Origin: Candidatus Bathyarchaeota archaeon
Lineage (GTDB): Archaea; Thermoproteota; Bathyarchaeia; TCS64
Direction of reading: 5' to 3'
DNA length: 64,000 nucleotides
Assembly (NCBI GenBank): GCA_017883585.1
Contig: JADGNG010000070.1
Span: 10,330-74,329, forward strand
Positions 8,678 through 51,108 of this stretch are shown here, piece after piece (position 1 is the stretch's first letter; each line of letters begins with the position of its first letter). The notes under the pieces are model-generated. The model was given only the letters and a program-made list of their open reading frames with translations, did not search any database and was not told where the DNA came from. The translations under genes were made by a program, and so were the position numbers.

Positions 8678-8688
8678 GCCGCAACTAC

Positions 8689-16672: not shown

Positions 16673-16749
16673 AATAGCACTCCGATGAATAAGAAATTGC
16701 GATTAGAAGGTAAAACCTTGCATCAAACGATTAGGGGGTAATGAAAGGG

Positions 16750-17586
16750 TTACCTGCCCTTGAATTCGGTCTTCTTACCATGGATCAAGTCTGACAGTCC
16801 CTGTTTGGCGTCGTCTGTTTCCCAGACTATGTTCGAGGCCTCTAACTCCTTTGCACGCGCCTCCGCGAGGTGGGAGTAGATGGTATTTCGGACACACTCT
16901 TTGAAGTACTTCGCTGCGATGGGGGCGGCGGTGGACATCTTCTTTGCGATGGCGAGGCCAATCTCGTCGACCTGGTCATCCGGCACGACCTTGCTGACGA
17001 GACCTAGCTCGTATGCCTGTTTTCCCGTGAAGCCCTCGTTGAGGAACATGTAGTCCATCACCTTGTTCCTGCCGATCCAGATCGGCAGTCGTAGGCTGCA
17101 CATCCCCCAAGATCCGACTATTCCGTAATAGATGTCGCCGTCGTGTATGTTGAAGGTCTCACCGACTATCCTGATGTCGAAGGCGCTGAAGACCGCGGAG
17201 GAGCCTCCGAATATGATTCCGCGTGCCGCGACGAGGGTCGGCTTCGGATAAGTATCGATCCGCTCTACGATCCTACCCCCGAGCTCTGAAAAAGGGGTAT
17301 CGGTGACACCACCCACTATGTCTTTGTCGAGGTCCTCGAAGCCAGCGCCCTGAGAGAAGTTCGGACCTGTGCTCTTCATCATGACCGCACGGATCCCGTC
17401 ATCCTTCTCGAATATGGCGAGGCAGTCGAGTACTTCCACGATCATCTTCTTGCTGAAGCCGTTCATCGGCGGGGCATCGATCGTGATGACGCCAACGCGC
17501 TCCTCTCTACTCACCTTTATCTGATTGTAATTCATAGTCGTACCCTTTCTCAATGGAGCGGAGGCCTTTAAAGAAGTTCGCATCAA
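16750..17586 (-). CDS. enoyl-CoA hydratase/isomerase (crotonase) family protein
   Basis: Crotonase fold: ERVGVITIDAPPMN, FSQGAGFEDL and PTLVAARGIIFGGS. The likely true start is the internal MNYNQIKV. Confidence 0.85.
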   Translation of the reverse strand: MMRTSLKASAPLRKGTTMNYNQIKVSREERVGVITIDAPPMNGFSKKMIVEVLDCLAIFEKDDGIRAVMMKSTGPNFSQGAGFEDLDKDIVGGVTDTPFSELGGRIVERIDTYPKPTLVAARGIIFGGSSAVFSAFDIRIVGETFNIHDGDIYYGIVGSWGMCSLRLPIWIGRNKVMDYMFLNEGFTGKQAYELGLVSKVVPDDQVDEIGLAIAKKMSTAAPIAAKYFKECVRNTIYSHLAEARAKELEASNIVWETDDAKQGLSDLIHGKKTEFKGR

Positions 17587-36355: not shown

Positions 36356-39217
36356 TTACTTCTTTTTGTCATCCCAGTACTGCCGAGTGCGCATGTACTG
36401 GATTTTTGCCTTAAGCAGGTCCGAGTAGAAGTCCTTGTTCGTGGCGTGCATCCTGCTGAGGACCTGGTAGGCGGTGACTGGACCGACGCCGTGGACGGCG
36501 AGCGCCTCCAGAGCCTTATGCCCGTAGCTGAGGACCAGATCGGCGGTCTTGCGACCGTTTGTGACGGTGTCCATCTCCTCGGGGAGGAGCTGCACCCCTA
36601 CCTTCATGCGGTTGAAGAGGGACTGGAAGTGGAATGGGTCCTCGTATCGGCGGAGGACGGCGAGCAGGCCGGAGCCGCAGCGGGGGCAGGTGGGGCGTTC
36701 TGGGAGGTCACGTATCCTCACCTCCTCGTGCCACTCGTTGCAGTTCATGCAGCTCAGCTTCACCTCGCGGGCGAGGACACTTTTCTGCATGTACTCGAGC
36801 TGGTCGGGAATAGCCATGCTCGAGTCCATGAGATCCTCAAGGTCAGCGTACGCCTCAAGTATGTGACGGGCAAGTGGGCTCGGCTCCCTCGCCGAGACAT
36901 AGCTAAGCTTGACGGCACCAGAGGATATTCGGGTGGCAATTTCCTTCACGGACCATAGGTCGAGCTTCTCCCTGTAGACCTCACGGAGGGACTCCTTGTA
37001 GATGGGGCTGTTCCTGTACCTGCGGTAGAGCCGGTTAAGCTCCGAAGAGCCCATCGTTTTTCCCCGTGGGATGGCTCCGAAGCGCTCGGCAATGAACTTC
37101 ATGTTGTAGGCATAGGGAAAACGTGACTCCATGTACTCGGTGAGCCTCTTCTCCGCCTCCTCCGGGGTGAGGGCCTTCAGGACGTTCAGGATGTCGTCGA
37201 CGTCGTATTTCGTTGCCTTCTGGGGGGTCTCGATGAGGATGCGGTAGGCGTCGCTCCACCAGCCGAGTATGAGGTCGCGCTCGCTCAGGGCGGCGTCGAG
37301 GACGCAGCCGAGGGTCGTGTTGACCTTGCTCCCGTAGGCGGTGTGGATGACGATGTAGCGCTCGTATGCCTCGAGGAGTATGAGATCCTTCGTGGGGATT
37401 GGGAAGCCGTGCTTTAGCTGGTCGTCGACCTCCTTCGCCGCGATGCCTATGGTAGCTAATGGGACCTTGAGCTCCTTGGACAGCTCCTCGACTGTCGCAT
37501 CGAGGCCCTCCGCCTTGATGCTCTCGGCTATCCTCTCCCTGAGGCCCCCCACTTCTTCAGCGATGTCCTTGGTGACGCCGATGAGTTCCCCGTCCCAACC
37601 GGGGATGGCGCCGAGGGGGTCATCACTGGGGAGGACGAATAAGCGCCCCTCATCCTCATCGATCTGCAGAATCTTCCAAACCTTGCCCTTGAGTATGACG
37701 TTGAGACCTACACGTGCACGGAGCGTCCAGAACTCGTCGCCAACCGTGCCGATGACCTTGTCGGTGACGACGTTGATGAAGGGGTAGCGCCTCTCGTCGT
37801 TGATCATACCGAGGTTCTCGAAGTAGTATCTCTGACCCTTCTTCGTCTTCTCCCGTTTACCTCCTCTCCTGTTAACTATCCTGATGGCGTTTAGGAAGCC
37901 GACGACGTCGTCGAAGTCTTCATGGCTTAAGGTCTTGAAGCAACTTGCGCCACTATGGATAAGAGAAAAAATTTTTTCGGTGTCGACCTCGCCGTTGTCG
38001 AGTGTCATGCCGGTTATCTGGTGGGCGAGGACGTCGAGGGGGTTCTTGTGGGGGATAGTGGGCTCTATCTCGTTCACCTTCGCCTTCCGGGCTGTGACCA
38101 TCGACTCCAGCGCGTCCTCCCCGTAGGCGGTGATCAGGATTCCCTGTGAGAGTTTGCTTAGCTTATGGCCGGCTCGGCCCACACGCTGTATAAGTGTTGA
38201 GACCTGTCGAGGACTGTTGTACTGGATGGTGAGGTCGACGTTGCCAACATCTATGCCGAGCTGTAAGGTGGAGGTAGCGACTATCGCCTTCAGCTCTCCT
38301 GCCTTGAACTTGTCCTCGACTATGTGGCGCTGCTCCCGGCTAAGGCTCCCGTGGTGGACCTCTATGCCGGGGTCTAGCTTTCCCAGCTTATGGCCGAGGC
38401 TCTCCGCCTGACCCCTGCCTTGGACGAAGATGAGGGTCGAGTTGTGGGCACGGACGAGGTCTCTGATAGCGCGAAGGCGGGAGGCTGCGACGGGTGTCGT
38501 GTTCAGGTCGCTACCAATGTCGAAATCCTCGTCCCGTAGCTCGGGGAACTCGACGTCGTAAACGTAGTCCTTGTCGACGGTGACCTCGACGATCTTTATT
38601 GGGTTGGAGCCGGCTAAAAAGGCGGCTATTGTCTCAGGGTTGCCCACAGTAGCGGAGAGACCTATCCTCTGCGGGGGCCTAGCCGCGACCTCGTCTAAGC
38701 GCGCTAAGCCAACTGTGAGCTGCGCCCCCCGTTTCGAGGCGGCGAGATCGTGAATCTCGTCGATAATAACCCACTTGACGGAGGTGAGGTGCCTTCTCAT
38801 GTCCTTCGTAGGGAGGATCGCTTGAAGCGTCTCGGGGGTGGTGATAAGCATCTGCGGCGGCTTCCTGAGCTGACTCCGCCTCTGCTTCTGCGTCGTGTCG
38901 CTATGGCGCACCTGCACGTCTATCCCGAGATGCTCCGCCCACGCCATCATGCGCTTGTCGATGTCTCGGTTCAGCGCCCTGAGGGGGGTAATGTAGATGA
39001 TGTTGATCCCTGTCTTGTCCCCCTCGCGGAGGTAAGAGTCGAAGATGGGTAGTATCGCGGCCTCGGTCTTCCCGCTCGCCGTGGGTGCGATAAGGAGGAC
39101 GTTCTCCCCAGCCAGGATCAGGGGAATCACTTTTTCCTGAGGAGGCGTCGGTTTCAACATACTGAACTCGGCTAGAGCATCCCGCAGCCGGGAGTTGAGC
39201 AGGTCGAAGACCGACAT
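36356..39217 (-). CDS. lhr: Lhr-type large ATP-dependent DEAD/DEAH-box helicase
   Basis: 953 aa. Motif I APTASGKTEA, motif II IIDEIHD, SAT, helicase C QRVGRAGH, then the Lhr-like winged-helix/domain 4 region and a C-terminal CxxC...CPRC zinc ribbon. Confidence 0.9.
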   Translation of the reverse strand: MSVFDLLNSRLRDALAEFSMLKPTPPQEKVIPLILAGENVLLIAPTASGKTEAAILPIFDSYLREGDKTGINIIYITPLRALNRDIDKRMMAWAEHLGIDVQVRHSDTTQKQRRSQLRKPPQMLITTPETLQAILPTKDMRRHLTSVKWVIIDEIHDLAASKRGAQLTVGLARLDEVAARPPQRIGLSATVGNPETIAAFLAGSNPIKIVEVTVDKDYVYDVEFPELRDEDFDIGSDLNTTPVAASRLRAIRDLVRAHNSTLIFVQGRGQAESLGHKLGKLDPGIEVHHGSLSREQRHIVEDKFKAGELKAIVATSTLQLGIDVGNVDLTIQYNSPRQVSTLIQRVGRAGHKLSKLSQGILITAYGEDALESMVTARKAKVNEIEPTIPHKNPLDVLAHQITGMTLDNGEVDTEKIFSLIHSGASCFKTLSHEDFDDVVGFLNAIRIVNRRGGKREKTKKGQRYYFENLGMINDERRYPFINVVTDKVIGTVGDEFWTLRARVGLNVILKGKVWKILQIDEDEGRLFVLPSDDPLGAIPGWDGELIGVTKDIAEEVGGLRERIAESIKAEGLDATVEELSKELKVPLATIGIAAKEVDDQLKHGFPIPTKDLILLEAYERYIVIHTAYGSKVNTTLGCVLDAALSERDLILGWWSDAYRILIETPQKATKYDVDDILNVLKALTPEEAEKRLTEYMESRFPYAYNMKFIAERFGAIPRGKTMGSSELNRLYRRYRNSPIYKESLREVYREKLDLWSVKEIATRISSGAVKLSYVSAREPSPLARHILEAYADLEDLMDSSMAIPDQLEYMQKSVLAREVKLSCMNCNEWHEEVRIRDLPERPTCPRCGSGLLAVLRRYEDPFHFQSLFNRMKVGVQLLPEEMDTVTNGRKTADLVLSYGHKALEALAVHGVGPVTAYQVLSRMHATNKDFYSDLLKAKIQYMRTRQYWDDKKK

Positions 39218-39287
39218 CTAGAAGGAACTCGAAAAGGTCGCTTAAAACGTGTCCTAATGAAGAAAATGGGGGCTGGTGAAAGTGAGC

Positions 39288-41174
39288 TTAGCGGTACTTC
39301 GCAACCGACTTCTCTAGGAAGCCGAGGTCAAGCCTCTCGAGGGTCTCCTTCCTAGGGATGCCTCTCTCGTCCCAGCCGAGGGTCTCGAAGTACGTCTGCA
39401 TCCTCAGGTCCACCCTCTCCCTGTCAGTGGTCTTACCCTTGAATGGCCCAGAGGGTAGTGGCTCGTAGTACCTCGGCGGGTTAACATCGTCCTTGATCGG
39501 CTCCCACGTAAGGTCGGGTCCACCCATTAGGAGGAACGCCTTCTGCAATGTGGTTATCCTCGGGCCGTTGACCTTCCTCCAGCTCGTGACGGTGATGGGG
39601 AATCCCGTGACGGCTTTCGCGAAGTCGAACTGCAGGGCAAGGTTGGGCCCTCGGGCGGTGAAGCTGCAGTAGACCGCGCAGTCGAAGTAGAGGTTCCCTG
39701 TCATGTCGTTGTAGCCGTCGGTCACATTGGCGGTGTGGTCGCCGCCTTGAACACTCGCGGCGTAGGTCATATCATGGGTGTAGTCGGCGTCGCTCCGGGT
39801 CCCGTGGGCACCAATCTCGATGCCCTTGACGTGGACGACGTACTTGAGGACCTCATCTTTTGGGAGTCCCTTCATCTCCGCGATCTTGATCGCGGCGCGG
39901 TAGCTGCCTTCAGCGAGGATGTCACCGATACCCTGCCGGTAGGCCATCATGCGCGTCAGTTTGTCGAACGCCTCGACGTCACCCCATTCGAGCTTGAAGC
40001 CTATATCCTCCTTGGTCAGTATGCCGCGCTGGTAGAGTTCGGCGGCGAAGCCGACGGTGTTTGCTCCGTTGATGCCGCTGTGCCCCAGCTTGTCCATCAG
40101 GGTGCTGAGGTGGATGTTGTCACCGGCGTCGTATATTCCGAAGTTGGTGCCGCAGTAGGCCTGTAGCTCGTAGTCAGGGACGTCGGTGATGTCGCCTTTC
40201 CACTTCCCCGACTTTATGCAACTGACCTTCATGCAGTTGGTTGTGCAGTTGAAGTCAGCCCACTTGACCTTGACCCAGTATCGGTCCATGTAGCGGTTAA
40301 CGCCGAGCTGCTTCTCGTCGTGCCACTCCTCTTGCCAGTTCCTGATGGGCTCACTGCTAGTGCCTGCTCCTGCACCGTAGGCCATAGCGCCGGTTCCCCA
40401 CCTACGCATCGGGGATACGGCGATGAGATCAGCGTGGACCTTCCTCCATAGTACCTTGACGGCCTCAGGGGCGTCGACGGCTGGGAACTTACCCCTGCTC
40501 TTGACGGCGATGGCCTTGAGGTTCTTGCTGCCCATGAGAGCGCCGTAGCCGCCGTAGCCACAGGCGTGGCAGATCTTCGTGCAGACTGCCGAGTTGCGCA
40601 CCATGTTTTCCCCAGCGGGGCCGATGTACATCGAAGCGGGCTCCTTCCAGAGGCCGACGCTTGGCATCTTCTTCGCGAGTGTGTCTCTGACCTCCTTGTT
40701 GAGCTTGATGACAGTCTCCTCGGAGTCGAGGCCCCAGAGGTGCTTGGCGTCCACGAGCTCGACCGAATCGTCCGTGATTAGCAGGTAGGCGGGGGTCTCC
40801 GACTTGCCGGTGAAGATTATGCCATCGTAGCCCGCATCCTTCAGCTCCACAGCGGTCTCAGTCGCCGCGGTGCTGCCTATGACGCTGTTGTTCGCGGGGC
40901 TCTTGCCGCTCACGCAGATGCGTGCGCCGGGGTAGATTCCGGTCATTGGCCCAGTAGCCACTATGAGGGGGTTCTCGGGGGCGAGGGAGTCCAGTTCGCT
41001 CCACTTCTCGCCGACCCTGTCCCAGAGTATCTTCGCCGCCATCCCCCTGCCGCCTAGGTATTGCTCCAGCATGCTGCGCGGGAACGTGATCTTCTCGAAG
41101 CTGCGCTTGGTGAGGTCTATGTCGAGCCACTTGCCGGCGTATCCACCTGGGATGCTGTCGTTATTTCCGCTCAT
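39288..41174 (-). CDS. aor: aldehyde:ferredoxin oxidoreductase family tungstoenzyme
   Basis: 628 aa. N-terminal AOR_N (YAGKWLDIDLT...GGRGMAAKIL), plus pterin/4Fe-4S ligand regions (CxxxC...C context CHACGYGGYG) typical of the AOR family. Confidence 0.9.
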   Translation of the reverse strand: MSGNNDSIPGGYAGKWLDIDLTKRSFEKITFPRSMLEQYLGGRGMAAKILWDRVGEKWSELDSLAPENPLIVATGPMTGIYPGARICVSGKSPANNSVIGSTAATETAVELKDAGYDGIIFTGKSETPAYLLITDDSVELVDAKHLWGLDSEETVIKLNKEVRDTLAKKMPSVGLWKEPASMYIGPAGENMVRNSAVCTKICHACGYGGYGALMGSKNLKAIAVKSRGKFPAVDAPEAVKVLWRKVHADLIAVSPMRRWGTGAMAYGAGAGTSSEPIRNWQEEWHDEKQLGVNRYMDRYWVKVKWADFNCTTNCMKVSCIKSGKWKGDITDVPDYELQAYCGTNFGIYDAGDNIHLSTLMDKLGHSGINGANTVGFAAELYQRGILTKEDIGFKLEWGDVEAFDKLTRMMAYRQGIGDILAEGSYRAAIKIAEMKGLPKDEVLKYVVHVKGIEIGAHGTRSDADYTHDMTYAASVQGGDHTANVTDGYNDMTGNLYFDCAVYCSFTARGPNLALQFDFAKAVTGFPITVTSWRKVNGPRITTLQKAFLLMGGPDLTWEPIKDDVNPPRYYEPLPSGPFKGKTTDRERVDLRMQTYFETLGWDERGIPRKETLERLDLGFLEKSVAKYR

Positions 41175-41695
41175 TTGATTACCTCCTCGCCCTTCTCCCC
41201 GAACATCTTCACGGCAAGATCTTTCGCAGTGTCGTAGGGATTCCTACTGTATATCTTCCTGTGGACGTTGGGGGGCTCGTTGACAATTGTCAGGCAATTG
41301 TAGCCCGCTTCCGTGCAGACCTCGACGCACTTGGGATCACCGTTACATAGGTCGCAGATGGTGGCCTTTTTGTCCCCGGGGTGGAGGTAAGGCACCGTGC
41401 CGGGGCACGCCCTGATGCATGCCCCGCAGCTGATGCACTTTGCACGGTCGACTATGACCGCTTCTGTGTTAGGGTCCTTCGAGAGAGCCTGCACCGGGCA
41501 GGAGGCTATGCAGGGGTAGTCCATGCACTGTGCGCAGAGGTGTGGCACCTCGACGCTGGGGAACGGCATGAAGACGCGCACCCTCGAGGCGTCGGGCCAC
41601 ATCCACCCCTCATGTTCGATGCTACAGGCAAGCTCGCAACGCCTGCAGCCTGAACATTGGGAGGGGTCACGGGCGATCCATATCGGTTTCGGCAT
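41171..41695 (-). CDS. 4Fe-4S dicluster (polyferredoxin-like) protein coupled to AOR
   Basis: Cys clusters CSGCRRCELAC, CAQCMDYPC, CISCGACIRAC and CDLCNGDPKC. It overlaps the aor start by 4 nt. Confidence 0.85.
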   Translation of the reverse strand: MPKPIWIARDPSQCSGCRRCELACSIEHEGWMWPDASRVRVFMPFPSVEVPHLCAQCMDYPCIASCPVQALSKDPNTEAVIVDRAKCISCGACIRACPGTVPYLHPGDKKATICDLCNGDPKCVEVCTEAGYNCLTIVNEPPNVHRKIYSRNPYDTAKDLAVKMFGEKGEEVIK

Positions 41696-41755: not shown

Positions 41756-42727
41756 CTACATGTGTCGTGCCGTGAAGAAAGCGACGAGATCCAGCCCATT
41801 TCGGATCTTCTTTTCCTTGATGTAGTAGGTGAGGGCGGCAAGAGAAGCGCAGGAGGCGGGTAGGACCGCTAGACCCTCCTCGTAGGCGACCATCTCCGAA
41901 TACCTAACCATCTCACCGTCGGTGACATGGGCGGCCCAGCCTCCGCTCTCCCAGAGTGCGTCGAGGGCCTCCTGTCCGTCGAGGCTCATCCAGTTGACTA
42001 GTGGCTCATTTATCACCGTCTCGTCTATCCCGTCGGGTCGTAGGTTCTCGATCTGACTCTTCCCCGCGAGGAAGCTGGAGACGATCGGGTTCCCCCCACT
42101 TGTGCTCGCGGCTATGACGGCGGTATTCTTCTTCGTCTTACCGGTCTTTCTTAGGCTCTGGAAACCGAAGTTTATCCCGGCTAGGGTCGTGCCGTTGCTC
42201 GTTGGTACTGCCACTGCGTCGGGGGCTCGTCCCATCCGCTCCACAATCTCGTAAGCGATTGTCGCATACGACTCGATGGAGGCTGCCCTGTTCTCGGGTG
42301 TGCCCGGGTTGGCGTTGTACCAACCTCGACTATTCGCCTCGATGCCGGAAGACTTGACCACCTCCTCATAGGTGCCCGGAGCCCTGTGGATAACGCCACC
42401 CTGTCTTTCCATCTCAGCAATCCGTGACGTGTGGTACTTCTCCGGAATGTAGACGTGCGTGGTGATTCCGAAGATACGGGAGAGATGAACGAAGCTCGCC
42501 CCGAAGTTACCGCAGGAGGCTATCGCCAGCTCCTTGTAGCCCAGTTCCTTCGCCAACCTGAGACACGCGTAGGCGGCACGATCCTTCATGGTCCCTGTCG
42601 GGTTCCCCCCCTCAAATTTCAAGTAAACGTTGCTAAATCCAAGCAACTGTTCGAGATTGCGGGAACGTGTGAATATCGTGTCGCCAATCCCGTGGCTGAT
42701 TAATTCTCCTTGCAACATTGCCGTCAA
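41756..42727 (-). CDS. PLP-dependent enzyme, tryptophan synthase beta/threonine synthase-like fold (type II)
   Basis: The PLP-lysine context FEGGNPTGTMKDRAA followed by ASCGNFGAS is characteristic of the PALP family. 323 aa. Confidence 0.75.
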   Translation of the reverse strand: MTAMLQGELISHGIGDTIFTRSRNLEQLLGFSNVYLKFEGGNPTGTMKDRAAYACLRLAKELGYKELAIASCGNFGASFVHLSRIFGITTHVYIPEKYHTSRIAEMERQGGVIHRAPGTYEEVVKSSGIEANSRGWYNANPGTPENRAASIESYATIAYEIVERMGRAPDAVAVPTSNGTTLAGINFGFQSLRKTGKTKKNTAVIAASTSGGNPIVSSFLAGKSQIENLRPDGIDETVINEPLVNWMSLDGQEALDALWESGGWAAHVTDGEMVRYSEMVAYEEGLAVLPASCASLAALTYYIKEKKIRNGLDLVAFFTARHM

Positions 42728-42806
42728 GATCTGAGTCTAACCTGATAGTAAGCAATAATAAGTAGCATTAATGATTATCGACTCTGGATAGAAAGTCCAC
42801 GCAGGT

Positions 42807-44174
42807 ATGTGTATAGTGTCTAGCCTCTCTGTGGAAGCGAGACAGATCGAGACGGGTTATGAAATAAATCTCCGCGGGTCGCGGTATGTCGTAAAATATC
42901 CGAACGGCTTCTGGAAGAACTACCCCCAGGAGGCGAAGGATGTCCTCTTCGACAACCTCGTATACGCCGAGACCGTCCACCTCCCCCTGACCCTGAGGAA
43001 GAGCGAGCTGAGGTACAACACCTCCGCCCCCTTCTTCCAGACCCAGTTCTTCCAGAACCTACTGATGGACCTGCCGAGCTGCGCAGACGTAGACGGGACC
43101 AGAACATCGGAACTCATCAAGGAGTTCATGAACCTGAAGATCAAGTTCAACGACTACGATGTTAAGTTCCCGACCTACAAGCAGCCGAGCAGGGACGACA
43201 GCAGTGTCGTCGCCCTCAGCTTCGGTAAGGACAGCCTACTAACCTGGGCTGTCTGCCGTGAGCTCGGCCTCAATCCCCAGGCGGCCTACGTCGTTGAGCC
43301 CCTCCTCCTCTACGAAGAGAAGCACAAGGACGTGCTCGCCAAGGAGTTCGAGAGCGAGTTCAAGGTTAAGCTGAATAAGATAATCCACACGACTGGCCAT
43401 CTGCGCGACGGCATACGCCTCGGCGTGGGCAAGACGGAGATCGGCTGGGGCCTCCAGAACACCCAGTACGCCATGATGCTGCTCCCCATCGCCAACACGT
43501 TCCAGGCGAAGTACATACTCTTCGGCAACGAACAGAGCTGTAGCGAGTACTACTACGATAAGGAGGGCTTCATCTGCTACCCCGCCTTCGACCAGAGCCA
43601 TAAGTGGACCATAAATATCGACCTCATCACGCGCCTCCTAACAAATGGCGGCGTCCGAACGATGAGCGTCATCGAACCACTCAACGACATAGCTGTGGTT
43701 TACGCCCTATACAAGAGGTACCCTGAGGTCGCGAAGTACCACATGAGCTGCTTCGTAGAGACCGAGGCCGGTCGCGACACCAGGTGGTGCATGAGCTGCA
43801 GCGTCTGCAGCAAGATGTACCTCCTCATCAAGGCGTGCGGCTTCGACCCCAAGACGGTTGGGCTCACGAAGAACATGCTCACAGAGGACTGCAAGGAATA
43901 CTTCAGCCTCTTCGGTGGAAGCGACGTCAACACCTACGCCCTCACTGGCAGGGGCCGCGACGAGCAGCTATTCGCATTCTACCTCGCGTGGAAGAACGGT
44001 GACAGGAGTCCCCTCACGATGGAGTTTGAGCAGAGGTTCCTCGACGAGGCGAAGGGCAGGGAGGACGAGCTCTACAAGCTCTTCTTCGGCGTCCATGAGG
44101 CAATCACGATGCCGGAGAAGATCAAGAACGAGACCCTCAGCATATACAAGGAGGTCCTTTCGGACGTCCCCTAG
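42807..44174 (+). CDS. PP-loop (N-type ATP pyrophosphatase / adenine nucleotide alpha-hydrolase) superfamily protein with novel N-terminal domain
   Basis: 455 aa. VVALSFGKDSLL matches the SGGxDS PP-loop. A downstream Cys cluster is CFVETEAGRDTRWCMSCSVC. The first 130 aa or so have no motif I recognise. Confidence 0.6.
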   Translation: MCIVSSLSVEARQIETGYEINLRGSRYVVKYPNGFWKNYPQEAKDVLFDNLVYAETVHLPLTLRKSELRYNTSAPFFQTQFFQNLLMDLPSCADVDGTRTSELIKEFMNLKIKFNDYDVKFPTYKQPSRDDSSVVALSFGKDSLLTWAVCRELGLNPQAAYVVEPLLLYEEKHKDVLAKEFESEFKVKLNKIIHTTGHLRDGIRLGVGKTEIGWGLQNTQYAMMLLPIANTFQAKYILFGNEQSCSEYYYDKEGFICYPAFDQSHKWTINIDLITRLLTNGGVRTMSVIEPLNDIAVVYALYKRYPEVAKYHMSCFVETEAGRDTRWCMSCSVCSKMYLLIKACGFDPKTVGLTKNMLTEDCKEYFSLFGGSDVNTYALTGRGRDEQLFAFYLAWKNGDRSPLTMEFEQRFLDEAKGREDELYKLFFGVHEAITMPEKIKNETLSIYKEVLSDVP

Positions 44175-45183
44175 CCGCAGGAAGCTGAGAATCGCCTTTT
44201 GTTGTAACACTCGCCACGACAAGGGGGAGTTCCAGGTCGAGTACGAGCCGGAGCACACCATAGCGCTAGTTAAGCACGCCATCGAGGCTGCCGGCTGGGA
44301 GTACATCCAGATCGAGGCCGACGAGACATGCTTTGAGACACTCCGCCGGGAAAGGCCGGACCTCGTCCTAAACAGGGCAGAGGGCGTCCGTGGCGAGAGC
44401 AGGGAGAGCCAGATTCCCGCGTTCTGCGAGATGCTCGGCATCCCCTACTCGGGGGCGGGCATCATGGCGACTGCCATCTGCCTCGACAAGCCCACGACGA
44501 AGAAGGTGCTAGAGTGGCACGGCATCAAGACCGCACCATTCACCGTACTCTTCGAGAAGAGCGACCCCGTAGACCCCAAGCTCAGGTACCCGCTCATTCT
44601 CAAGCCGAGCCACGAGGGCAGCAGCATAGGTATAAATATCGACAATGTCGTCCACGGCGATAAGCAGCTCCGCCGGAAGCTCAAGGAGATGCTTGGAGTC
44701 TACAAGCAGGGCATACTCGCAGAGGAGTTCATCGACGGCCGCGAGTTCAGCGTCGGCGTCGTCGGCAACTTCATCGGCGAGGAGAAGCCACGCATCCTCT
44801 CCATCTTCGAGATGGACTTCAGTAAGTTCGCCACGGAGCTCGGCACCGTCCTCGGCCAGAAAGCCAAGACAATCTACGACTCCTCCGCCAACTATATCTG
44901 CCCAGCCAAGCTCCCAGCGAAGCTCAAGAGGGAGATCGAGGAGACGACACTGAAGGCGGTCAAAGTCCTGCAATGCTACGACTGGGGCCGCCTAGACTAC
45001 AGGTACAACAGCCGCGGCGAGCTCTACTTCCTAGAGATCAATCCACTACCTGGTATCGACTGCGACGCCTCGGTGGACGACTTCAGCTTCTACCCCTTCA
45101 TGTGGTTGCGGGGCGGCTGGAGCTTCGACGACATGATTCGCGAGGTCGTCGGTGCAGGTCTTAAGCGGTACGGAATCAAGTAG
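44095..45183 (+). CDS. D-alanine--D-alanine ligase-like ATP-grasp enzyme (start codon uncertain)
   Basis: The conserved N-terminus RIAFCCN...EYEPEHTIALVKHAIEAAGWEY begins at about 44188. ATP-grasp motifs: LDKPTTKKVL, YPLILKPSHEGSSIGI, AEEFIDGREFSV, YFLEINPLPG. The only canonical in-frame start is ATG 44095, inside the upstream gene. Confidence 0.75.
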   Translation: MRQSRCRRRSRTRPSAYTRRSFRTSPSRRKLRIAFCCNTRHDKGEFQVEYEPEHTIALVKHAIEAAGWEYIQIEADETCFETLRRERPDLVLNRAEGVRGESRESQIPAFCEMLGIPYSGAGIMATAICLDKPTTKKVLEWHGIKTAPFTVLFEKSDPVDPKLRYPLILKPSHEGSSIGINIDNVVHGDKQLRRKLKEMLGVYKQGILAEEFIDGREFSVGVVGNFIGEEKPRILSIFEMDFSKFATELGTVLGQKAKTIYDSSANYICPAKLPAKLKREIEETTLKAVKVLQCYDWGRLDYRYNSRGELYFLEINPLPGIDCDASVDDFSFYPFMWLRGGWSFDDMIREVVGAGLKRYGIK

Positions 45184-45190
45184 CTCCCCT

Positions 45191-45775
45191 ATGGGCGAGG
45201 AGCCACCCTTTTTCGAGGAGGCAGTCAGACGGGTTGAAGAGAGGCTGGGCGGCTTCCTCGGAGAAACCGTCAAAATAAGTATCCACTTGTCCATCGACAG
45301 AAAGCTGATCGATGACGTTCTGGGTATCGACTCACGCAAATTCAGGGAGGAACTATGGTACACCACATGGGACCTAATCAAGCGGGGGGAGAAGGAAGGG
45401 TTTACCCTCCTCCTCGTCCGCGCAGGCAAAGAGCCAATCGCCTTCTTCTTTGGCTACGAGGATGCTGACCTTCCCGGGGGCTACTATGGGGACTACATGG
45501 CGAGTCTTAACGAGGGGATGGGGGTTGGCAGTAGCCGCTTCACACTAGTCCACATCTACTGCTACGAGAACGGCTTCACACACTTCAGCTGCCACTCCGA
45601 GGAAGTGGACGAGAGCGGCCGGAAGCTAAGGGAGTGGTACAAGGCGAGGGGGATGGGCCTCGTCAAGACCACTCCCGAGGAGGGTGATCTACTCAGGGTC
45701 GAGTTGACCTCGGGGCACATGAATTGGATGTACCACCACTACATCCTCGGGGACAAGCAATACAAGCGCGTTTAG
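45191..45775 (+). CDS. GNAT-like acyltransferase-fold protein (tentative)
   Basis: ATG 7 nt after the ATP-grasp stop. GKEPIAFFFGYE...YMASLNEGMGVGSSRFTL...KLREWYKARGM resembles a GNAT beta4-alpha3 acyl-CoA-binding region. An alternative GTG start lies at 45152. Confidence 0.45.
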   Translation: MGEEPPFFEEAVRRVEERLGGFLGETVKISIHLSIDRKLIDDVLGIDSRKFREELWYTTWDLIKRGEKEGFTLLLVRAGKEPIAFFFGYEDADLPGGYYGDYMASLNEGMGVGSSRFTLVHIYCYENGFTHFSCHSEEVDESGRKLREWYKARGMGLVKTTPEEGDLLRVELTSGHMNWMYHHYILGDKQYKRV

Positions 45776-45828
45776 GCCAGTAAATTTAACCGAAACAAGG
45801 CTTTTAACCGGATCAGCCCCTCAGCCCC

Positions 45829-46272
45829 ATGCTGTACTTTTCATACGGTTCCTTCCTGGACTCGGAGATGCTTAGGAGGCACTGCCCCAAGGCAGTCTAC
45901 AAGGGTATGGCTATGCTCACAAACTGGGAAGTCCAGTTCAACATCATGAGCTGCACCTACAAGGGCGGCGTAACGGGGATCGAGCCCGCGGCGGCGAAGC
46001 TCGTCAGGCGGGTGCTCTACGAGGTGAACGATGATGAGATTCTTCACTTAGATTCTATCGAAGGCGTCCCCGATTGCATCTACTACAGGCAGACCATCTA
46101 CGTCGTCGACGAGTCGGGTAAGGCGGTGAAGGCGGCGACGTATTGGACGACGAACCCGAAGGGGCCATTCAAGCCCACGCAGTACCTTGGGCTCATGATC
46201 AGCGGAGCGAACGAGCACGGTCTTGACCCCGACTACGTCAAGGAGCTTGAGGTGGTCGAGACAATCGACTAG
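45829..46272 (+). CDS. gamma-glutamylcyclotransferase (GGCT/AIG2-like) family protein
   Basis: MLYFSYGSFLDSEMLRRHCP... and LYEVNDDEILHLDSIEG are typical of the GGCT fold (YGSxL motif). Confidence 0.75.
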   Translation: MLYFSYGSFLDSEMLRRHCPKAVYKGMAMLTNWEVQFNIMSCTYKGGVTGIEPAAAKLVRRVLYEVNDDEILHLDSIEGVPDCIYYRQTIYVVDESGKAVKAATYWTTNPKGPFKPTQYLGLMISGANEHGLDPDYVKELEVVETID

Positions 46273-46521
46273 CCCGTCTCGTTGTAATATCGGTTTTCTC
46301 GTTTCTTCGTCTCACGGGCGAGATATTTACTACCAAGTAACGGATAACCCGATAAATATGTGACAAATATCGTTCGCCCATTGTGCAAACATGGCAACCC
46401 GCAAGACGATGTTCATGGCGATCGCATACGCAGCAGGCGCCATAATTACAATCGTGATGATAATAGCAACATGCATACTGGGCGGTAGGCCTCCGGTAAT
46501 CTACCCGGGATAAGAAAAACC

Positions 46522-48123
46522 CTAAAGGCCCTTGTGATAAAGGATCTTCCCGTTCACGATCGTCATATAGACCTTCGCATCCCGGATGTTCTCCGGCTTT
46601 ATATCGGTCAGATCACGATCGATTACCGCCACGTCTGCGAGTTTCCCCGTCTCTATGCTCCCCTTGGTATCCTCTTCGAAGCTTGCGTAGGCACCGTTCA
46701 GAGTATAGCACCTGATTGCCTCGACCAGTTTGATCCGCGCGTCCTTTATACCGTGGTTCACTGCGCTCCATACACCGTAGATCGGGTGGAAGGGCATGCC
46801 GTCGCTTCCGAAGGCGATGGTTATCCCTTCGTCGATCATTATCCGGTAGGGGTTGTTGAGGCGGTTCCTCTCCTCTCCGAGGCGCTGCTCGTACATGCTC
46901 CCCGGCCCAGCCCACTCCCCGACGAAGTTCGGCTGCACCGCCGGGATGATCCCAAGCTCCTTGATGCGCTCGATCTGCCCCGCCGTAAGTATCTCGCAGT
47001 GTTCGATGCGATGGCGGTGATCCTTCCTCGGCGCGTCCTTTATCGCAGCCTGGATACTGTTGATGACGCACTCTATAGCATAGTCGCCGATAGCGTGGAT
47101 CGCGATCTGGTTACCGTGCCTATGCGCCGTCTTCGCCTTCTCGTCCAGCACCTCGGGCGGCATTATCAGCAGCCCCTTCGACGACGGCTCATCCGTGTAC
47201 GGCTCGAAGAGCGCCGCCGTCCTCGCACCGAGGCTCCCATCCATCATCAGCTTAGTCGGCCCGATCTTAATCATGTCGTTGCCGAAGCCGGTACGTATCC
47301 CGATCTCGTAGCTCTGCTCCTGGATGGTCTCGTTTAGGAAGAGGTAGGCGCGGACCTTCAAGTAGCCCTTGGCAAGAGCCGTCTGGTATGCCTTGAGGGC
47401 GTCCCCGCCGAGACCCGCGTCGCCGATGCTCGTGCAGCCGAGGCTCAGCGCGTACTCGGAGGCGATCTTCAGCCCCTCGACCGCCGTCTCCTCCGTGACT
47501 GTAGGAATGAAGGGCTCGATCAGGTGGCGACAATCCCTCAGGATGCCGGTAGGCTCTCCGTCAGAACCTATGTCGATCTTTCCCCCCTCGGGCTGTGGCG
47601 TCTCCCTAGTTATCCCCGCGATCTTGAGGGCTGGCGTGTTTAGAGTCAGAAGGTGGCCGCAGATACGCACGACCATTATAGGGTGCGTCTTGCTCACGGC
47701 GTCGAGGTCCTCCTTCGTCGGATACCGGTTCTCGGGCCACTTGGACTCGTCCCAGCCCTTACCGAGTATCCACTCCTCCTTCTTCGTCGTCTTCGCCTTC
47801 TCCTTCATCCGCGCCATTGCAGCTTCCAGTGTCGGCGGATCACGGAGCTGGACATCCCGAATCATCGAGATGCCCATCCCGTAGAAGTGGCAGTGGCTGT
47901 CGATGAACCCCGGCACGACCGTCATGCCGGTGACATCGTAGACCTCGGCTCCCATAGGGATCTCGATCTTCCCCTTCTTTCCCGCGGCTAGAATGTAGTC
48001 GCCTTGCATCAAAACGATGCTGTCTTTTATAGGTGGGCGGCCCGTTCCGTCGATTAGTGTGCCACCCGTCAAAACTCTTGGACAAGGTTCCAGGGACAAT
48101 ACTGTCGTTGGACTCCTATCCAT
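46522..48123 (-). CDS. amidohydrolase family protein (Amidohydro_3 type, D-aminoacylase/formamidase-like)
   Basis: 533 aa. GFIDSHCHF metal-binding motif, AIHAIGD, a HRIEHCE-type His, and a C-terminal GSIETGKLADVAVID. Confidence 0.85.
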   Translation of the reverse strand: MDRSPTTVLSLEPCPRVLTGGTLIDGTGRPPIKDSIVLMQGDYILAAGKKGKIEIPMGAEVYDVTGMTVVPGFIDSHCHFYGMGISMIRDVQLRDPPTLEAAMARMKEKAKTTKKEEWILGKGWDESKWPENRYPTKEDLDAVSKTHPIMVVRICGHLLTLNTPALKIAGITRETPQPEGGKIDIGSDGEPTGILRDCRHLIEPFIPTVTEETAVEGLKIASEYALSLGCTSIGDAGLGGDALKAYQTALAKGYLKVRAYLFLNETIQEQSYEIGIRTGFGNDMIKIGPTKLMMDGSLGARTAALFEPYTDEPSSKGLLIMPPEVLDEKAKTAHRHGNQIAIHAIGDYAIECVINSIQAAIKDAPRKDHRHRIEHCEILTAGQIERIKELGIIPAVQPNFVGEWAGPGSMYEQRLGEERNRLNNPYRIMIDEGITIAFGSDGMPFHPIYGVWSAVNHGIKDARIKLVEAIRCYTLNGAYASFEEDTKGSIETGKLADVAVIDRDLTDIKPENIRDAKVYMTIVNGKILYHKGL

Positions 48124-48137
48124 TAGCGCGCAGATCT

Positions 48138-48149
48138 TTAAATATAAAT
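48138..48149 (-). promoter_or_regulatory. TATA-box-like element for the amidohydrolase gene (near-leaderless)
   Basis: The minus strand reads GATTTATATTTAAAGATCTGCGCGCTA-ATG. The TTTATATTTAAA element is centred about 21 nt upstream of the start at 48123. Confidence 0.4.
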
Positions 48150-48196
48150 CATTGGAGGGAACCTCATTGATTTATCACTCGCGGAATATGGGATGT

Positions 48197-49075
48197 TTAC
48201 CTTGCACTCAGGTAGCCGCTCAGCATCAGGTTAAGTGTCTGCACGATCGCCACGATGACGAAGTCCTTCGAGAGCACCTTACCCAACTCAAGCAACCGAT
48301 TGATGTCCTGTGAACCCAGTATCTTCCTGCTCAACCAGAGGCGCAGGGAGACGAACGCAGCGAGCGCCAATAGAATGACATAGAAAACCATCGGGAGGTT
48401 GAACATTACACCAACTAGAAGCATCAGTGGGATGAGTGCGTAGCCTAGCACTATGGTCAGCAACATCCCTTTATGGGGTCCTAAGACTATGTGGACGGTC
48501 CTCGCGCCGCTCTTGAGATCGGGGACGTAGTCCGCCAGATCCTCCCAGAGGCTGTTCACTGCGGTAGTCGTCCCGATAACAGCGACAAGCACAAGAACAC
48601 TGGGGTAGGTTGCGCCGGCGAAGGCTGCGACGATGAACACCGGTACAGCGCCGACCGTGAAATTCACAACTGGTTTCAAGAGGGTCTGCCTGAGCCTGAA
48701 GGGCGGAGCGGAATAGAGCACACCGAAGAAGATGCCTACAACGACCCAGAAGACCACGTAGATCGACAATGAGAGTGCACCCAGCAGCGATGATAGGGCG
48801 CACAGCCCAAGAGCCACGGGTAAACCCAGCCCACCGAGCCTCCTCGTGAACTCCGCACGGGAGGGGTGGGAGACGACGTCGAGTTCTTTGTCGAAGACGT
48901 TGTTCAGGGCGTCGACACCGCTCCACCCGAGGAACACGATGACCCCTAGGTACGATGCCTGGTTCCACGCGCCCGAGTCAAGCATGAGGAAGGCAGCGCC
49001 GACGGCGATTGCGAAGACCATCACGCCCCGTTCCGCGGAAATGAAATTAGCGAACCCCCGCAATCCACGGAGCAT
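48197..49075 (-). CDS. UbiA family prenyltransferase
   Basis: 292 aa with about 8-9 TM segments. First Asp-rich motif NNVFDKELD (NxxxDxxxD) and a second acidic motif WEDLADYVPD. Confidence 0.85.
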   Translation of the reverse strand: MLRGLRGFANFISAERGVMVFAIAVGAAFLMLDSGAWNQASYLGVIVFLGWSGVDALNNVFDKELDVVSHPSRAEFTRRLGGLGLPVALGLCALSSLLGALSLSIYVVFWVVVGIFFGVLYSAPPFRLRQTLLKPVVNFTVGAVPVFIVAAFAGATYPSVLVLVAVIGTTTAVNSLWEDLADYVPDLKSGARTVHIVLGPHKGMLLTIVLGYALIPLMLLVGVMFNLPMVFYVILLALAAFVSLRLWLSRKILGSQDINRLLELGKVLSKDFVIVAIVQTLNLMLSGYLSAR

Positions 49076-49140
49076 ACAATCTGAACTTACCCTGCTGATT
49101 TAAAAACCATAGCAGGGGAACGATCCCGGCTGAGGGTATC

Positions 49141-50307
49141 TTAGCCGACTGTGACGATCCCCGTCGTGTACTTCTTTATCGCGGCCTCATTGAGCTCGAA
49201 CCCGAGACCCGGCCCCTTTGGTGCCTCAATGTAGCCCTTCTCGAGCTTCACCGGCTCCTTGATGATGTCCTCGTTGAACCACTCGGGGAATCCTGAGAGC
49301 TCGCACTTCTGGGTTATCGACTTGCTGCACCCTGCTATGATGTGGGAGGCGGCGGAGAGGCTAACGCCCATCTCGAGGTCGTCGTGCATGAGGGTGGGGA
49401 TGTTCATCACCCTCGCCATGTCGAGTATTCTCCTCACGTTGGTGATGCCGCCGGCGGGGCGGTAGGTCTTCAGCCCAAGGACCCCTATGGCGCCCATATC
49501 TATGAGGGTCTTCACGTCGGCCATGGAGAAGAGGGACTCGTGTGGCATAATGGGGGTGTCAACGGAACCCGCCACCTTTGCGAGGGTGGCGAAGTCCCAC
49601 CAGACGGTGGGCTGTTCAACAAGCTCAACGTCGAACTGTTCGATCTCCCTGATCATCTTGATTACATCTGTGGCGCCGTAGCCCTGGTTGCAGTCGACGC
49701 GTAGGGTCACGTCCTCGCCGATGGCCTCCCTCATCGCCTTGACGCAGGAGACGTCTCTTTTCGGCCCAATCTTGAGGCGAATACCAGTGTAACCCTCCTT
49801 GACGAGGCGCTTGCCCTCGGTAGCTACTTTCGCGGGAGTGTCGATGCCTATGAGGGCGACATTGGGTATCTTCGAGGCGTTTGAGCCTCCCCCGAGGAGC
49901 TTGAAGACGGGAACGTTCAGGCTCCTGCCCATGATGTCCCAGAGAGCCATGTCGATCGCGGCCTTCGCCATTGGGTAGGTCGGGGCCCAGTAGTCCATTT
50001 TCTCCCAGACGCCTTCGAGATCGAAAGGGTCCAAGCCCATGATGTTCGGGGCAATCCAACGCTTGATCATCTCCGTGACCACCGCCTGATTCTCAGGCGA
50101 GAGTGGGGGTAGCGGCGGGCACTCGCCCACACCTGAGATGCCGTCGTCCGTGTGGACACGGGCGAGGATGAACTCGAATGGCATCCCCTCACCCAGCTTT
50201 CCGTATCGAGAGAGGGCGAGAACCTTCTTCTTCTGCAGATTAATCGGTATAACCTCAATCTTCGTAATCTTCAAGCAGGAACACGACCGTATCCAATTCG
50301 GCTCCAC
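49141..50307 (-). CDS. enolase-superfamily enzyme, mandelate racemase/muconate lactonising (dipeptide epimerase-like)
   Basis: Capping domain ...HTDDGISGVGE. Barrel metal ligands in RVDCNQGY, VELVEQP and MHDD. The conserved N-terminus LKITKIEVIPI suggests a TTG start at about 50274. Confidence 0.85.
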   Translation of the reverse strand: MEPNWIRSCSCLKITKIEVIPINLQKKKVLALSRYGKLGEGMPFEFILARVHTDDGISGVGECPPLPPLSPENQAVVTEMIKRWIAPNIMGLDPFDLEGVWEKMDYWAPTYPMAKAAIDMALWDIMGRSLNVPVFKLLGGGSNASKIPNVALIGIDTPAKVATEGKRLVKEGYTGIRLKIGPKRDVSCVKAMREAIGEDVTLRVDCNQGYGATDVIKMIREIEQFDVELVEQPTVWWDFATLAKVAGSVDTPIMPHESLFSMADVKTLIDMGAIGVLGLKTYRPAGGITNVRRILDMARVMNIPTLMHDDLEMGVSLSAASHIIAGCSKSITQKCELSGFPEWFNEDIIKEPVKLEKGYIEAPKGPGLGFELNEAAIKKYTTGIVTVG

Positions 50308-50323
50308 CTATTGAAGAGGTTTT

Positions 50324-51028
50324 TCAGTTGGTAAGGTCGAGGAAGTTCTCTACGAGCAATTCTGCTAGGCACCTCATCTCGGGCTCCCGCTCCCTACACT
50401 CATCGAGAACCTGCCCACGAGTCTTTCCGACGGCTACAAGCTCCTCGGGGTATGCAGAGGCCCACCTTCCCGCCTCGACGTTGTTGATCTCTAGGTGAAA
50501 GATGACTCCTCTCACGTTCCTCCAGACGTATGCTTGAATGGGGCATGGGTCGCCTCGGGCGAGGAGCTTGCCCCCAGTCGGGACCTTGAACATGTCGCTG
50601 TGCCAGTGGAATACGGGCACCTCCCGGGGGAAGCCCCTAAAGACTGGGTCGGCGACGCCCTCATCAGTGAGCATGATATTGTAGAATCCGACCTCTTTCC
50701 TCGGGCTCCTCACCACCTCAGCTCCGAGCAGCCGAGCGAGCATCTGCCCGCCGCAGCACACCCCCAGCACAGGCTTGCCGCTTCCAACAATCCTTGAGAG
50801 GTATTCCCACTCCCTCGTCAGGAACCTGTGCTTGTTTACGTCGTTGGCGGAGATGGGTGTGGGGCCCACGACGAACGCCGAGTACGTCTCGGTCCCGGGG
50901 AAAGCCTCCTTGCCCATCGAGTAGGCGTGCACCACATCCACCTCTGTCCGCTCTCTGAGGAACTCCTCGTAGAGGCCGAGGTTCTCTGTGTTGTCGTTCT
51001 GGATGATGAGCACCCTACGGGGCTCCAT
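50324..51028 (-). CDS. class I glutamine amidotransferase-like protein
   Basis: Nucleophile elbow VLGVCCGGQML and a His in FHWHSD. 234 aa. Confidence 0.8.
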   Translation of the reverse strand: MEPRRVLIIQNDNTENLGLYEEFLRERTEVDVVHAYSMGKEAFPGTETYSAFVVGPTPISANDVNKHRFLTREWEYLSRIVGSGKPVLGVCCGGQMLARLLGAEVVRSPRKEVGFYNIMLTDEGVADPVFRGFPREVPVFHWHSDMFKVPTGGKLLARGDPCPIQAYVWRNVRGVIFHLEINNVEAGRWASAYPEELVAVGKTRGQVLDECREREPEMRCLAELLVENFLDLTN

Positions 51029-51108
51029 GTGGGTTTATCGCCGCCAAGGCTTAAAACGGGTTCGAAGGAAGGCAACCGATATGGGGAGGAGCCGCAGGAA
51101 ACTCAGCC

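Follow-up and report, generated by a model that had tools for sequence, protein, structure and literature searches.

A conserved four-gene archaeal module with a Ddl-type ligase and a candidate MurL-related PP-loop enzyme

Results

Gene layout of the locus

We analyzed a 64,000-nt stretch of the genome of a Candidatus Bathyarchaeota archaeon (contig JADGNG010000070.1; hereafter the window), in which positions 41756-46272 hold five closely spaced genes around a lead protein that we call X. The leftmost gene (41756-42727, - strand) encodes a threonine-synthase-like, fold-type II pyridoxal 5'-phosphate (PLP) enzyme of 323 aa with a PALP match of 2.2e-54. It is divergent to the gene of X (42807-44174, + strand), and the AT-rich spacer of 79 nt between them (42728-42806), read directly from the sequence, presumably holds the promoters of both. 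X is a protein of 455 aa which, as judged from a hidden Markov model (HMM) match and an AlphaFold2 model searched with Foldseek, is a MurL-related PP-loop enzyme. Two of its features are invariant in an alignment of its family: the PP-loop motif SFGKDS (residues 138-143; 43218-43235, + strand) and a four-cysteine cluster, C315-x12-C328-x2-C331-x2-C334 (43749-43808, + strand), which is a predicted zinc site.

Three further genes follow on the + strand. They encode a Ddl-type ATP-grasp ligase of ~332 aa with a probable CTG start (44185-45183; Dala_Dala_lig_C, 1.6e-33), a GNAT N-acyltransferase of 194 aa that begins with the ATG at 45191 (45191-45775; assigned through Acetyltransf_1 matches of its orthologs), and a 147-aa protein of the gamma-glutamyl(amine) cyclotransferase fold (GGCT; 45829-46272; AIG2_2 and GGACT matches). 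With the CTG at 44185 as start, 10 nt separate X from the ligase gene, followed by gaps of 7 nt between ligase and GNAT and 53 nt between GNAT and GGCT. The list of open reading frames (ORFs) and our reading of the junctions thus agree with the initial annotation of this locus, which had proposed the same five genes, spacers, stop codons, ATG at 45191 and gaps of 53 and 79 nt. No Rfam family, and with it no riboswitch or other RNA element, reached the gathering score on either strand of the whole 64,000-nt window.

Four of the genes form a module conserved across archaeal lineages

The window proteins were mapped onto 80 genome loci with relatives of X and several metagenome contigs, and the ORFs of 86 loci were clustered; the counts below refer to these 86 loci. 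X is present in 82-83 of them, the Ddl-like ligase in 79, and the PLP gene lies near X in 75, each in every lineage group. The GNAT gene follows the ligase gene and occurs in 66 loci from six of the seven tallied lineage groups; in the Aigarchaeota-type loci it was not detected by the ORF clustering. Outside these four core families, no family is found in more than 21 loci. The module occurs in Bathyarchaeia, Aigarchaeota/Nitrososphaeria and Thor-, Heimdall-, Hod-, Hermod-, Borr- and Promethearchaeota, and the identity of X drops as low as 42% across these lineages. The homologs are therefore not scattered but in strong synteny across phyla, and the four core families recur in 66-83 of the 86 loci.

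The PLP gene may be divergent upstream, co-directional upstream or convergent downstream, depending on the lineage, and yet lies within a few kb of X. A second Candidatus Bathyarchaeota locus (L007), whose X is 99% identical to that of the window by tblastn, has the identical gene order. At locus L091, on a 4.3-Mb contig, the order is PLP-X-ligase-GNAT and consecutive genes overlap by 4 nt. The four families are thus kept together across lineages despite rearrangement of the PLP gene, which, together with the 4-nt overlaps, indicates a functional operon and not a chance adjacency. In L091 they are the last four of eight co-directional genes (706-8908), encoding an M20D amidohydrolase, a DUF5058 protein, two unknown proteins, the PLP enzyme, X, the ligase and the GNAT.

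The conserved unit therefore consists of four genes (PLP enzyme, X, Ddl-like ligase and GNAT), and not five. The recurring arrangement suggested by the initial annotation stands for this core, which spans phyla, and not for the GGCT gene, which is lineage-specific. GGCT was found in 13 loci, all of them close relatives of the window, defined here as loci whose X is at least 82% identical. Because it is present only there, we regard it as an accessory of the window's clade that lies outside the conserved unit.

A link of the module to methanofuran or formylmethanofuran dehydrogenase genes was considered and rejected as coincidental, as such genes stand beside the module in one Bathyarchaeia subgroup and do not recur in other groups. 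At locus L006, the module is followed (11106-17172) by formylmethanofuran dehydrogenase-like subunits (Molydop_binding, Molybdopterin, Amidohydro_3) and then by Ftr and a RimK-type ATP-grasp protein. None of these downstream families was among the families common to at least two lineage groups in the clustering of the 86 loci.

X is a predicted QueC-fold enzyme with remote similarity to MurL

X has no Pfam match at E-values up to 0.1 and thus none to PF06508 (QueC). An N-domain (residues 1 to ~125) precedes a core of the QueC-like PP-loop ATP pyrophosphatase type (~125-345), and the C-domain is helical; the AlphaFold2 model of X is of high quality (predicted local distance difference test score, pLDDT, 91.8; predicted template modeling score, pTM, 0.91). 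Foldseek searches with this model returned QatC (9y01_B, E 5e-5), QueC (3bl5, TMt 0.68-0.69) and Cap9 (9nto_B, TMt 0.71), followed by YcfA, TtuA and LarE; the alignment to QatC is weak (template modeling score, TM, 0.36-0.38). The PP-loop stretch of X aligns with that of TtuA, and sequence searches of the PDB with X, as a single sequence or as a profile, yielded marginal matches to the TtuA PP-loop only. Judged from the model, X is a QueC-fold PP-loop enzyme with an adenylating fold. The N-domain alone (~125 aa; model pLDDT 86.9) showed no significant fold match in the PDB; its best match (E 0.012, TM about 0.36) is to RNase H and ribosomal protein S11-like folds.

Among 20 aligned members of the X family, S138, G140, K141, D142 and S143 of the PP-loop and all four cysteines (C315, C328, C331, C334) are invariant, as are the motifs YEEKHK, GWGLQ, GNEQS, YDQSHxW, IEPLxD, MSCF..E..G...WCxxCxxCxKM and RDEQLF. 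QueC proteins are marked by an SGGxDS PP-loop and a C(x)8CxxCxxC zinc motif (PMC13329287). X shares with the QueC family (PF06508, including Cap9 and QatC) the Rossmann-type PP-loop fold, the SxGxDS and Cys(x)nCxxCxxC patterns and, presumably, the carboxylate adenylation chemistry, with SFGKDS in place of SGGxDS and a cysteine spacing of x12 instead of x8. Unlike this family, it has extra N- and C-terminal domains, and it occurs neither in a 7-deazaguanine gene context nor with QatA/B/D or partners from CBASS (cyclic oligonucleotide-based antiphage signaling systems). The cysteine cluster, which the initial annotation had left unrecognized along with the N-domain, is thus a predicted zinc site of the QueC type, whereas the N-domain is still without a counterpart in the PDB.

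The sole sequence relative of known function emerged from the NCBIfam profiles. X matches the MurL model NF041275 with 24.5 bits (E 8.7e-6), below the family cutoff of 700 bits, and the match is collinear, pairing residues 111-361 of X with positions 118-359 of the 447 in the model. The same model is matched by 19 of the 20 X-family members (best 2.3e-10), weakly also by distant representatives, and no rival family appears. By sequence, X is therefore a distant relative of MurL, and by analogy X may epimerize its substrate.

A HMMER search of 1.84 billion representative sequences identified 556 X-family clusters at E-values up to 1e-3, most of them of 440-460 aa. The ~300 close clusters are without exception labeled 'hypothetical' and none has a Pfam domain; a profile search for homologs of X recovered the same close family and no named relative. 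Even relatives of 22-30% identity hold the PP-loop and the C..WCxxCxxC motif. Homologs of X were not found in plasmid or phage collections.

Several relatives of X are found in other settings. Distant bacterial homologs (24-27% identical) from Desulfobacterota, Spirochaetota and Pseudomonadota are without ligase, GNAT and PLP partners. At two such loci (L087, 7492-9359; L088, 7703-9335) an unannotated ORF of 89-106 aa lies directly upstream of the X homolog, and in L087 a gene for a major facilitator superfamily (MFS) transporter lies downstream. In these bacteria the enzyme family would serve a different purpose, possibly with peptides or proteins as targets. X paralogs stand in tandem at L089 (1327-3989), where the upstream copy is 41% identical to the window X, and at L037 a second paralog (33%) adjoins the module (7556-8998). 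Two proteins of 777-791 aa (P0355, P0356) join an X-like region to a C-terminal creatininase domain (PF02633).

The ligase retains the Ddl catalytic residues and has an altered first-substrate site

The best PDB relatives of the ligase are Ddl enzymes (97 bits), and yet it stays below every NCBIfam Ddl cutoff, with a best score of 173 bits against 243 (PRK01372). Like the Ddl/Van ligases, it has the Dala_Dala_lig_C domain and keeps the ATP, Mg and catalytic residues: the counterparts of E. coli DdlB K97, K144, S150, E180, E187, K215, R255, D257, E270, N272 and S281 are invariant in the alignment, and among them are the residues by which the carboxylate of the second substrate is held. Unlike in those enzymes, the first-substrate site is rebuilt. 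Changed residues are Y216 to T, L282 to F and H63 to E, the N-terminal GGxSxExEVS motif of the D-Ala1 site is replaced by CNTR....EFxVEYD, and two insertions flank the active site. In DdlB, the GGxSxE motif with E15, together with Y216, forms the D-Ala1 site. The module ligase gene is also paired with X and not with mur genes. The pattern of kept and changed residues suggests that the ligase is active, that it takes as nucleophile an amino acid whose alpha-carboxylate is free, and that its acyl donor would not be D-Ala-like; this donor may be larger, acidic or N-blocked.

The initial annotation had placed the conserved ATP-grasp N-terminus at about 44188, which fits the position of about 44185-44191 found here. 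Its start codon needs correction, as the conserved N-terminus (44185-44193) offers neither ATG nor GTG nor TTG and the codon at 44185 is CTG. Close relatives have ATG (L012, L016, L037) or TTG (L007, L008, L010, L011) as the ligase start codon. A CTG in this place therefore suggests non-canonical initiation, or re-initiation 10 nt past the stop codon of X. That X and ligase are fused, or joined by read-through of the TAG codon, was ruled out because the two genes lie in different reading frames. In L006, the called ligase gene begins 15 codons downstream of the conserved N-terminus, and gene callers can be expected to truncate or over-extend this gene.

A divergent GNAT and an unusual PLP enzyme complete the module

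The GNAT of the window has only a weak Acetyltransf_6 match below threshold (0.0037). Among its orthologs, 23 of 28 match Acetyltransf_1 (best 1.5e-11), upholding the earlier GNAT-like call, and their alignment reveals the conserved motifs FRxELxY, LDTxA..EGKGIG and TEE.DEKG..L..FYE..GF. The acyl-CoA loop reads EGKGIG in the orthologs and EGMGVG in the window copy, and the protein has a ~50-aa N-terminal extension. The window GNAT is thus a divergent member of the true GNAT family. The PP-loop, ATP-grasp and GGCT assignments of the initial annotation were likewise confirmed by Pfam and NCBIfam profiles and by alignment.

The PLP enzyme exceeds the cutoff of NCBIfam PRK06381, 'threonine synthase' (342 bits; cutoff 266), and falls below that of thrC TIGR00260 (74 bits; cutoff 167) and of four more threonine synthase models. 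Among solved structures, threonine synthases come closest (2zsj, 83 bits), and it shares with them the fold and the NPTGxxKDR lysine motif; the PLP lysine is K48, aligned to K61 of the Thermus enzyme. Unlike threonine synthase, it has F75, P141 and S150 at the positions of Thermus T88, S155 and R160, which we take to be the residues that bind the substrate phosphate. Across 76 orthologs, the position of F75 is Phe in 70, no Arg is conserved, and a family signature of its own, (S/T)CGNFG plus W(Y/F)(N/D)ANPG, is maintained. The invariant Cys72 of this signature stands just ahead of the Gly-Asn of the substrate loop, a position that we assume to correspond to the second catalytic Ser in fold-type II serine racemases. 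Because the equivalents of T88, S155 and R160 are replaced and the family has its own signature, the fold-type II enzyme recognized by the initial annotation does not appear to be a canonical threonine synthase.

Accessory and neighboring genes vary between lineages

The GGCT protein of the window exceeds the cutoffs of both AIG2_2 (54.9 bits, 1.2e-14; cutoff 27) and GGACT (32.2 bits, 1.8e-7; cutoff 22.8). Its sequence contains YFSYGS and LDSIEG..Y.R, presumably the substrate and catalytic-Glu motifs.

Beyond it, Pfam and NCBIfam profiles identify Amidohydro_3 (46522-48123, - strand), UbiA (48197-49075, -), an enolase-superfamily MR_MLE protein (49141-50307, -), a class-I glutamine amidotransferase (50324-51028, -) and an alanine racemase (51109-52275, +). 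The racemase, about 6 kb from the Ddl-type ligase, has Ala_racemase_N and _C domains and scores 366.8 bits with TIGR00492 (cutoff 168). The MR_MLE protein is below all NCBIfam cutoffs; its best matches are to muconate-cycloisomerase-type models, and it also matches models of L-Ala-D/L-Glu epimerase and N-acetyl-D-Glu racemase. The region 46522-52275 may be functionally linked to the module. Its genes are conserved only in close relatives of the window, so that this linkage may just reflect close relatedness: Amidohydro_3 (12 loci) and alanine racemase (10 loci) are confined to the close relatives, and MR_MLE (13 loci) is found there and in three Heimdall-type loci.

Other lineages have different neighbors. 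In Heimdall and Promethearchaeota loci, an NSAR/OSBS-type enolase (the Heimdall copy with 286 bits in TIGR01928; cutoff 200) and a PF00144 enzyme resembling D-aminopeptidase or AmpH lie near the module, and the L091 operon is headed by an M20D N-acyl-amino-acid amidohydrolase. As for a combination of GNAT, NSAR/OSBS enolase and M20, NSAR-type scores above cutoff are restricted to Heimdall loci and M20D to L091. In 11 loci, which belong to three lineage groups, an MFS transporter gene is close to the module. In total, three unrelated hydrolase families and two racemase families adjoin the module in independent lineages. They suggest, with moderate strength only because such neighbors are not conserved, that the chemistry involves N-acylated amino acids and D/L stereochemistry.

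Two further features flank the window's module. A 40-aa hydrophobic ORF, MATRKTMFMAIAYAAGAIITIVMIIATCILGGRPPVIYPG (46391-46513, + strand), which may encode a small membrane protein, lies in the convergent gap past the GGCT gene and shows weak conservation in L011 and L008 (E about 2e-5 to 4e-5). On the other side (36356-41695, - strand) are genes for an Lhr-type helicase of 953 aa, an aldehyde:ferredoxin oxidoreductase of 628 aa and a 4Fe-4S ferredoxin-type protein of 174 aa. The Lhr helicase recurs in 18-21 of the 86 loci, which are from Bathyarchaeia apart from two Borrarchaeum loci.

Discussion

Relation to known systems

Our analysis identifies a four-gene module in which an enzyme family without a Pfam model is consistently paired with a Ddl-like ligase. 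No HMM, structure or literature match places this set in a characterized operon, and we found no published description in the literature searched, which covered the module itself, MurL homologs, archaeal QueC-like proteins with ATP-grasp enzymes and Ddl in Asgard archaea or Bathyarchaeota. The initial annotation had read the locus as a toolkit for making or tailoring a small amino-acid or peptide metabolite outside any named archaeal pathway, and we infer that this is still the general reading with the best support. The module probably builds a small amino-acid conjugate, which possibly contains a D-amino acid.

The closest template is the alternative D-Glu route of Xanthomonas oryzae. There, in peptidoglycan synthesis, MurL acts after the ligase MurD2, whose gene adjoins murL; MurL is a unidirectional, ATP- and Mg2+-dependent L-to-D epimerase that forms AMP and in which, according to its description, no known domain occurs (PMC5808125, PMC8788868). 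The 2026 survey of the QueC family mentions neither MurL nor epimerases (PMC13329287). As in the module, the gene of an ADP-forming amino-acid ligase stands beside that of a ~450-aa enzyme of the MurL lineage, and MurL adenylates a C-terminal residue that was N-acylated in the preceding ligase step, which is the model for the role that we propose for X. Unlike MurD2/MurL, the module has a Ddl-type ATP-grasp enzyme in place of a Mur ligase, and a GNAT and a PLP enzyme are added. No mur or UDP-MurNAc pathway genes were seen near the module in the 86 loci. The host archaea are not known to make murein.

The module also has features in common with the GNAT-NSAR-M20 pathway, which irreversibly converts D- to L-amino acids in Geobacillus kaustophilus (bioRxiv 10.1101/2022.03.03.481873). 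Both have a GNAT beside a candidate inverting enzyme, and NSAR/OSBS-type enolases and M20D or other amidohydrolases recur near the module. Unlike in that pathway, the inverting candidate of the module is an ATP-dependent PP-loop enzyme, ligase and PLP enzyme belong to the core, and the hydrolase is variable.

A tentative pathway

We tentatively regard the module as a couple of ligase and epimerase of the MurD2/MurL type in which a Ddl-type enzyme serves as ligase and a GNAT and a novel PLP enzyme are added, and consider this identity plausible, if somewhat short of probable. In the corresponding pathway, ligation and adenylation-driven epimerization would yield a dipeptide or N-acylated product whose C-terminal residue is inverted in configuration; by analogy with MurD2/MurL, we would give this scheme a little less than an even chance. 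The threonine-synthase-like PLP enzyme would supply or modify a free amino acid as building block. The Ddl-type ligase would then activate a carboxylate as acyl-phosphate and couple it to the amino group of an amino acid whose alpha-carboxylate stays free, a step that is strongly suggested because the catalytic and second-site residues are conserved. The GNAT may acylate the free amine from an acyl-CoA. Finally, X would use ATP, with release of AMP and PPi, to adenylate the N-acylated or peptidyl product at its C-terminal carboxylate; this would make the C-alpha proton more acidic, and X might release the residue in inverted form, as MurL does. In the window's clade, GGCT, the amidohydrolase, the racemase-like enolase-superfamily enzyme and the alanine racemase could add deacylation or trimming and a supply of D-amino acids (D-Ala). 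In several lineages MFS transporters adjoin the module, a hint that its product is moved across the membrane.

Taken to its full extent, this pathway would give Bathyarchaeia, Aigarchaeota and Asgard archaea a common, ATP-driven route to a D-amino-acid dipeptide or N-acyl peptide. It would combine the Ddl-type ligase and the GNAT with a unidirectional epimerase of the MurL type and the novel PLP enzyme, be fed by alanine racemase in some lineages and lead to some envelope, signaling or protective compound. That all of these elements hold together is, in our opinion, doubtful.

Several points weigh against the MurD2/MurL-type pathway. X resembles MurL only remotely, with 24.5 bits where the family cutoff is 700. 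Enzymes of the QueC fold also amidate (QueC) and conjugate amines (Cap9, QatC); adenylation therefore does not imply epimerization. The substrates of all four enzymes are putative, the order of the steps is a guess and the pathway leaves the role of the PLP enzyme unexplained. The alanine racemase, MR_MLE and amidohydrolase genes are clade-specific, and common descent instead of a functional tie could account for them. If X were not an epimerase, the module could be more distinct from known systems than proposed here.

Alternative explanations

In the alternative that we take most seriously, although we deem it rather unlikely, X could adenylate the C-terminal carboxylate and capture ammonia or an amine, as in the first half-reaction of QueC and without epimerization, or carry out a second amide ligation. 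A precedent is the bacterial osmolyte N-acetylglutaminylglutamine amide (NAGGN), for which a GNAT plus ATP-grasp enzyme (Ngg) makes the N-acetyl dipeptide and the PP-loop amidotransferase AsnO amidates its C-terminus. The enzyme classes GNAT, ATP-grasp and PP-loop correspond to those of the module, MFS transporters recur nearby, and in the window's clade the stand-alone class-I glutamine amidotransferase (50324-51028) could supply the ammonia. The nearest folds of X, namely QueC, Cap9 and QatC, all form C-N bonds from an adenylated carboxylate (PMC13329287, PMC13279940). However, by sequence X has only one named relative, the epimerase MurL, rather than QueC or asparagine synthetase; a glutaminase is neither fused to X nor conserved beside it, the glutamine amidotransferase being clade-specific; and an amide product would account neither for the PLP enzyme nor for the racemases and amidohydrolases that recur nearby. 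Another alternative is salvage or detoxification of environmental D-amino acids or D-peptides taken up from necromass, in which ligase and/or GNAT would capture the substrate, X would irreversibly invert D to L and a hydrolase would release the product, as an ATP-driven counterpart of the GNAT-NSAR-M20 pathway. The hosts are sediment and soil archaea, described as heterotrophs that feed on necromass, and three hydrolase families (Amidohydro_3, D-aminopeptidase-like PF00144 and M20D) stand beside the module in different lineages, with an NSAR-type enolase in Heimdall loci, MFS transporters nearby and ABC-type transporters in one locus. A known D-to-L pathway also consists of GNAT, racemase and M20 enzymes (bioRxiv 10.1101/2022.03.03.481873). 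We nevertheless judge salvage unlikely: two ATP-consuming activating enzymes are expensive for catabolism, MurL operates from L to D only, the alanine racemase beside the Ddl-type ligase points to D-amino-acid supply for synthesis, and the hydrolases lie outside the conserved core.

The remaining two explanations depart further from small-molecule synthesis. X might modify the terminus of a protein or ribosomal peptide, by conjugation of the QatC/Cap9 type or by a C-terminal modification resembling that of RiPPs (peptides made on the ribosome and then modified), maybe as part of a defense or toxin system. This is suggested by the top Foldseek match, QatC from the QatBC complex, and by those distant bacterial homologs that have a small ORF of 89-106 aa directly upstream, sometimes an MFS gene downstream, and no ligase. 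The QatC match is weak, though (TM 0.36-0.38), the gaps of 7-79 nt in the archaeal module leave no room for a conserved small ORF, and the module lies among housekeeping genes as a single copy across phyla. With no PADLOC match for any of the five proteins and no phage or plasmid homologs of X, we think such a role very unlikely; a defense system as such was rejected on the same PADLOC result and on the lack of QatA/B/D or CdnD/Cap10 neighbors in the 86 loci. Hardly credible, finally, is a chance adjacency of housekeeping genes for threonine synthase, D-Ala-D-Ala ligase and acetyltransferase. The above-cutoff PRK06381 score and the Ddl matches of the ligase would fit it, but the four families stay together where X is only 42-60% identical, with the PLP gene rearranged and stop and start codons overlapping, the PLP enzyme lacks the phosphate-site residues of threonine synthase and the ligase, under all Ddl cutoffs, is altered in its first site.

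Implications

Our results bear on the annotation of these genomes. Automated pipelines will assign the name 'threonine synthase' to the PLP gene and 'D-alanine--D-alanine ligase' to the ligase, and will mis-start the ligase gene. Such labels could be over-read as evidence of murein-like synthesis or threonine biosynthesis in these archaea.

If the MurD2/MurL-type pathway is correct, the module would provide a second setting for ATP-dependent peptide epimerization beyond peptidoglycan synthesis of the Xanthomonas type. For the X family, whose more than 550 representative clusters from archaea and bacteria are covered by no Pfam model, it would be the first functional lead. With the pathway in its full extent, X would be the founding archaeal member of a large family of adenylating enzymes, and the chemistry of murein stem peptides would operate in archaea that are not known to make murein. 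To our knowledge, the envelopes and small metabolites of Asgard archaea and Bathyarchaeia are largely uncharacterized. Under this pathway, D-amino-acid peptide chemistry would take place in these uncultured organisms, and the four soluble enzymes of the module would offer a testable lead to it.

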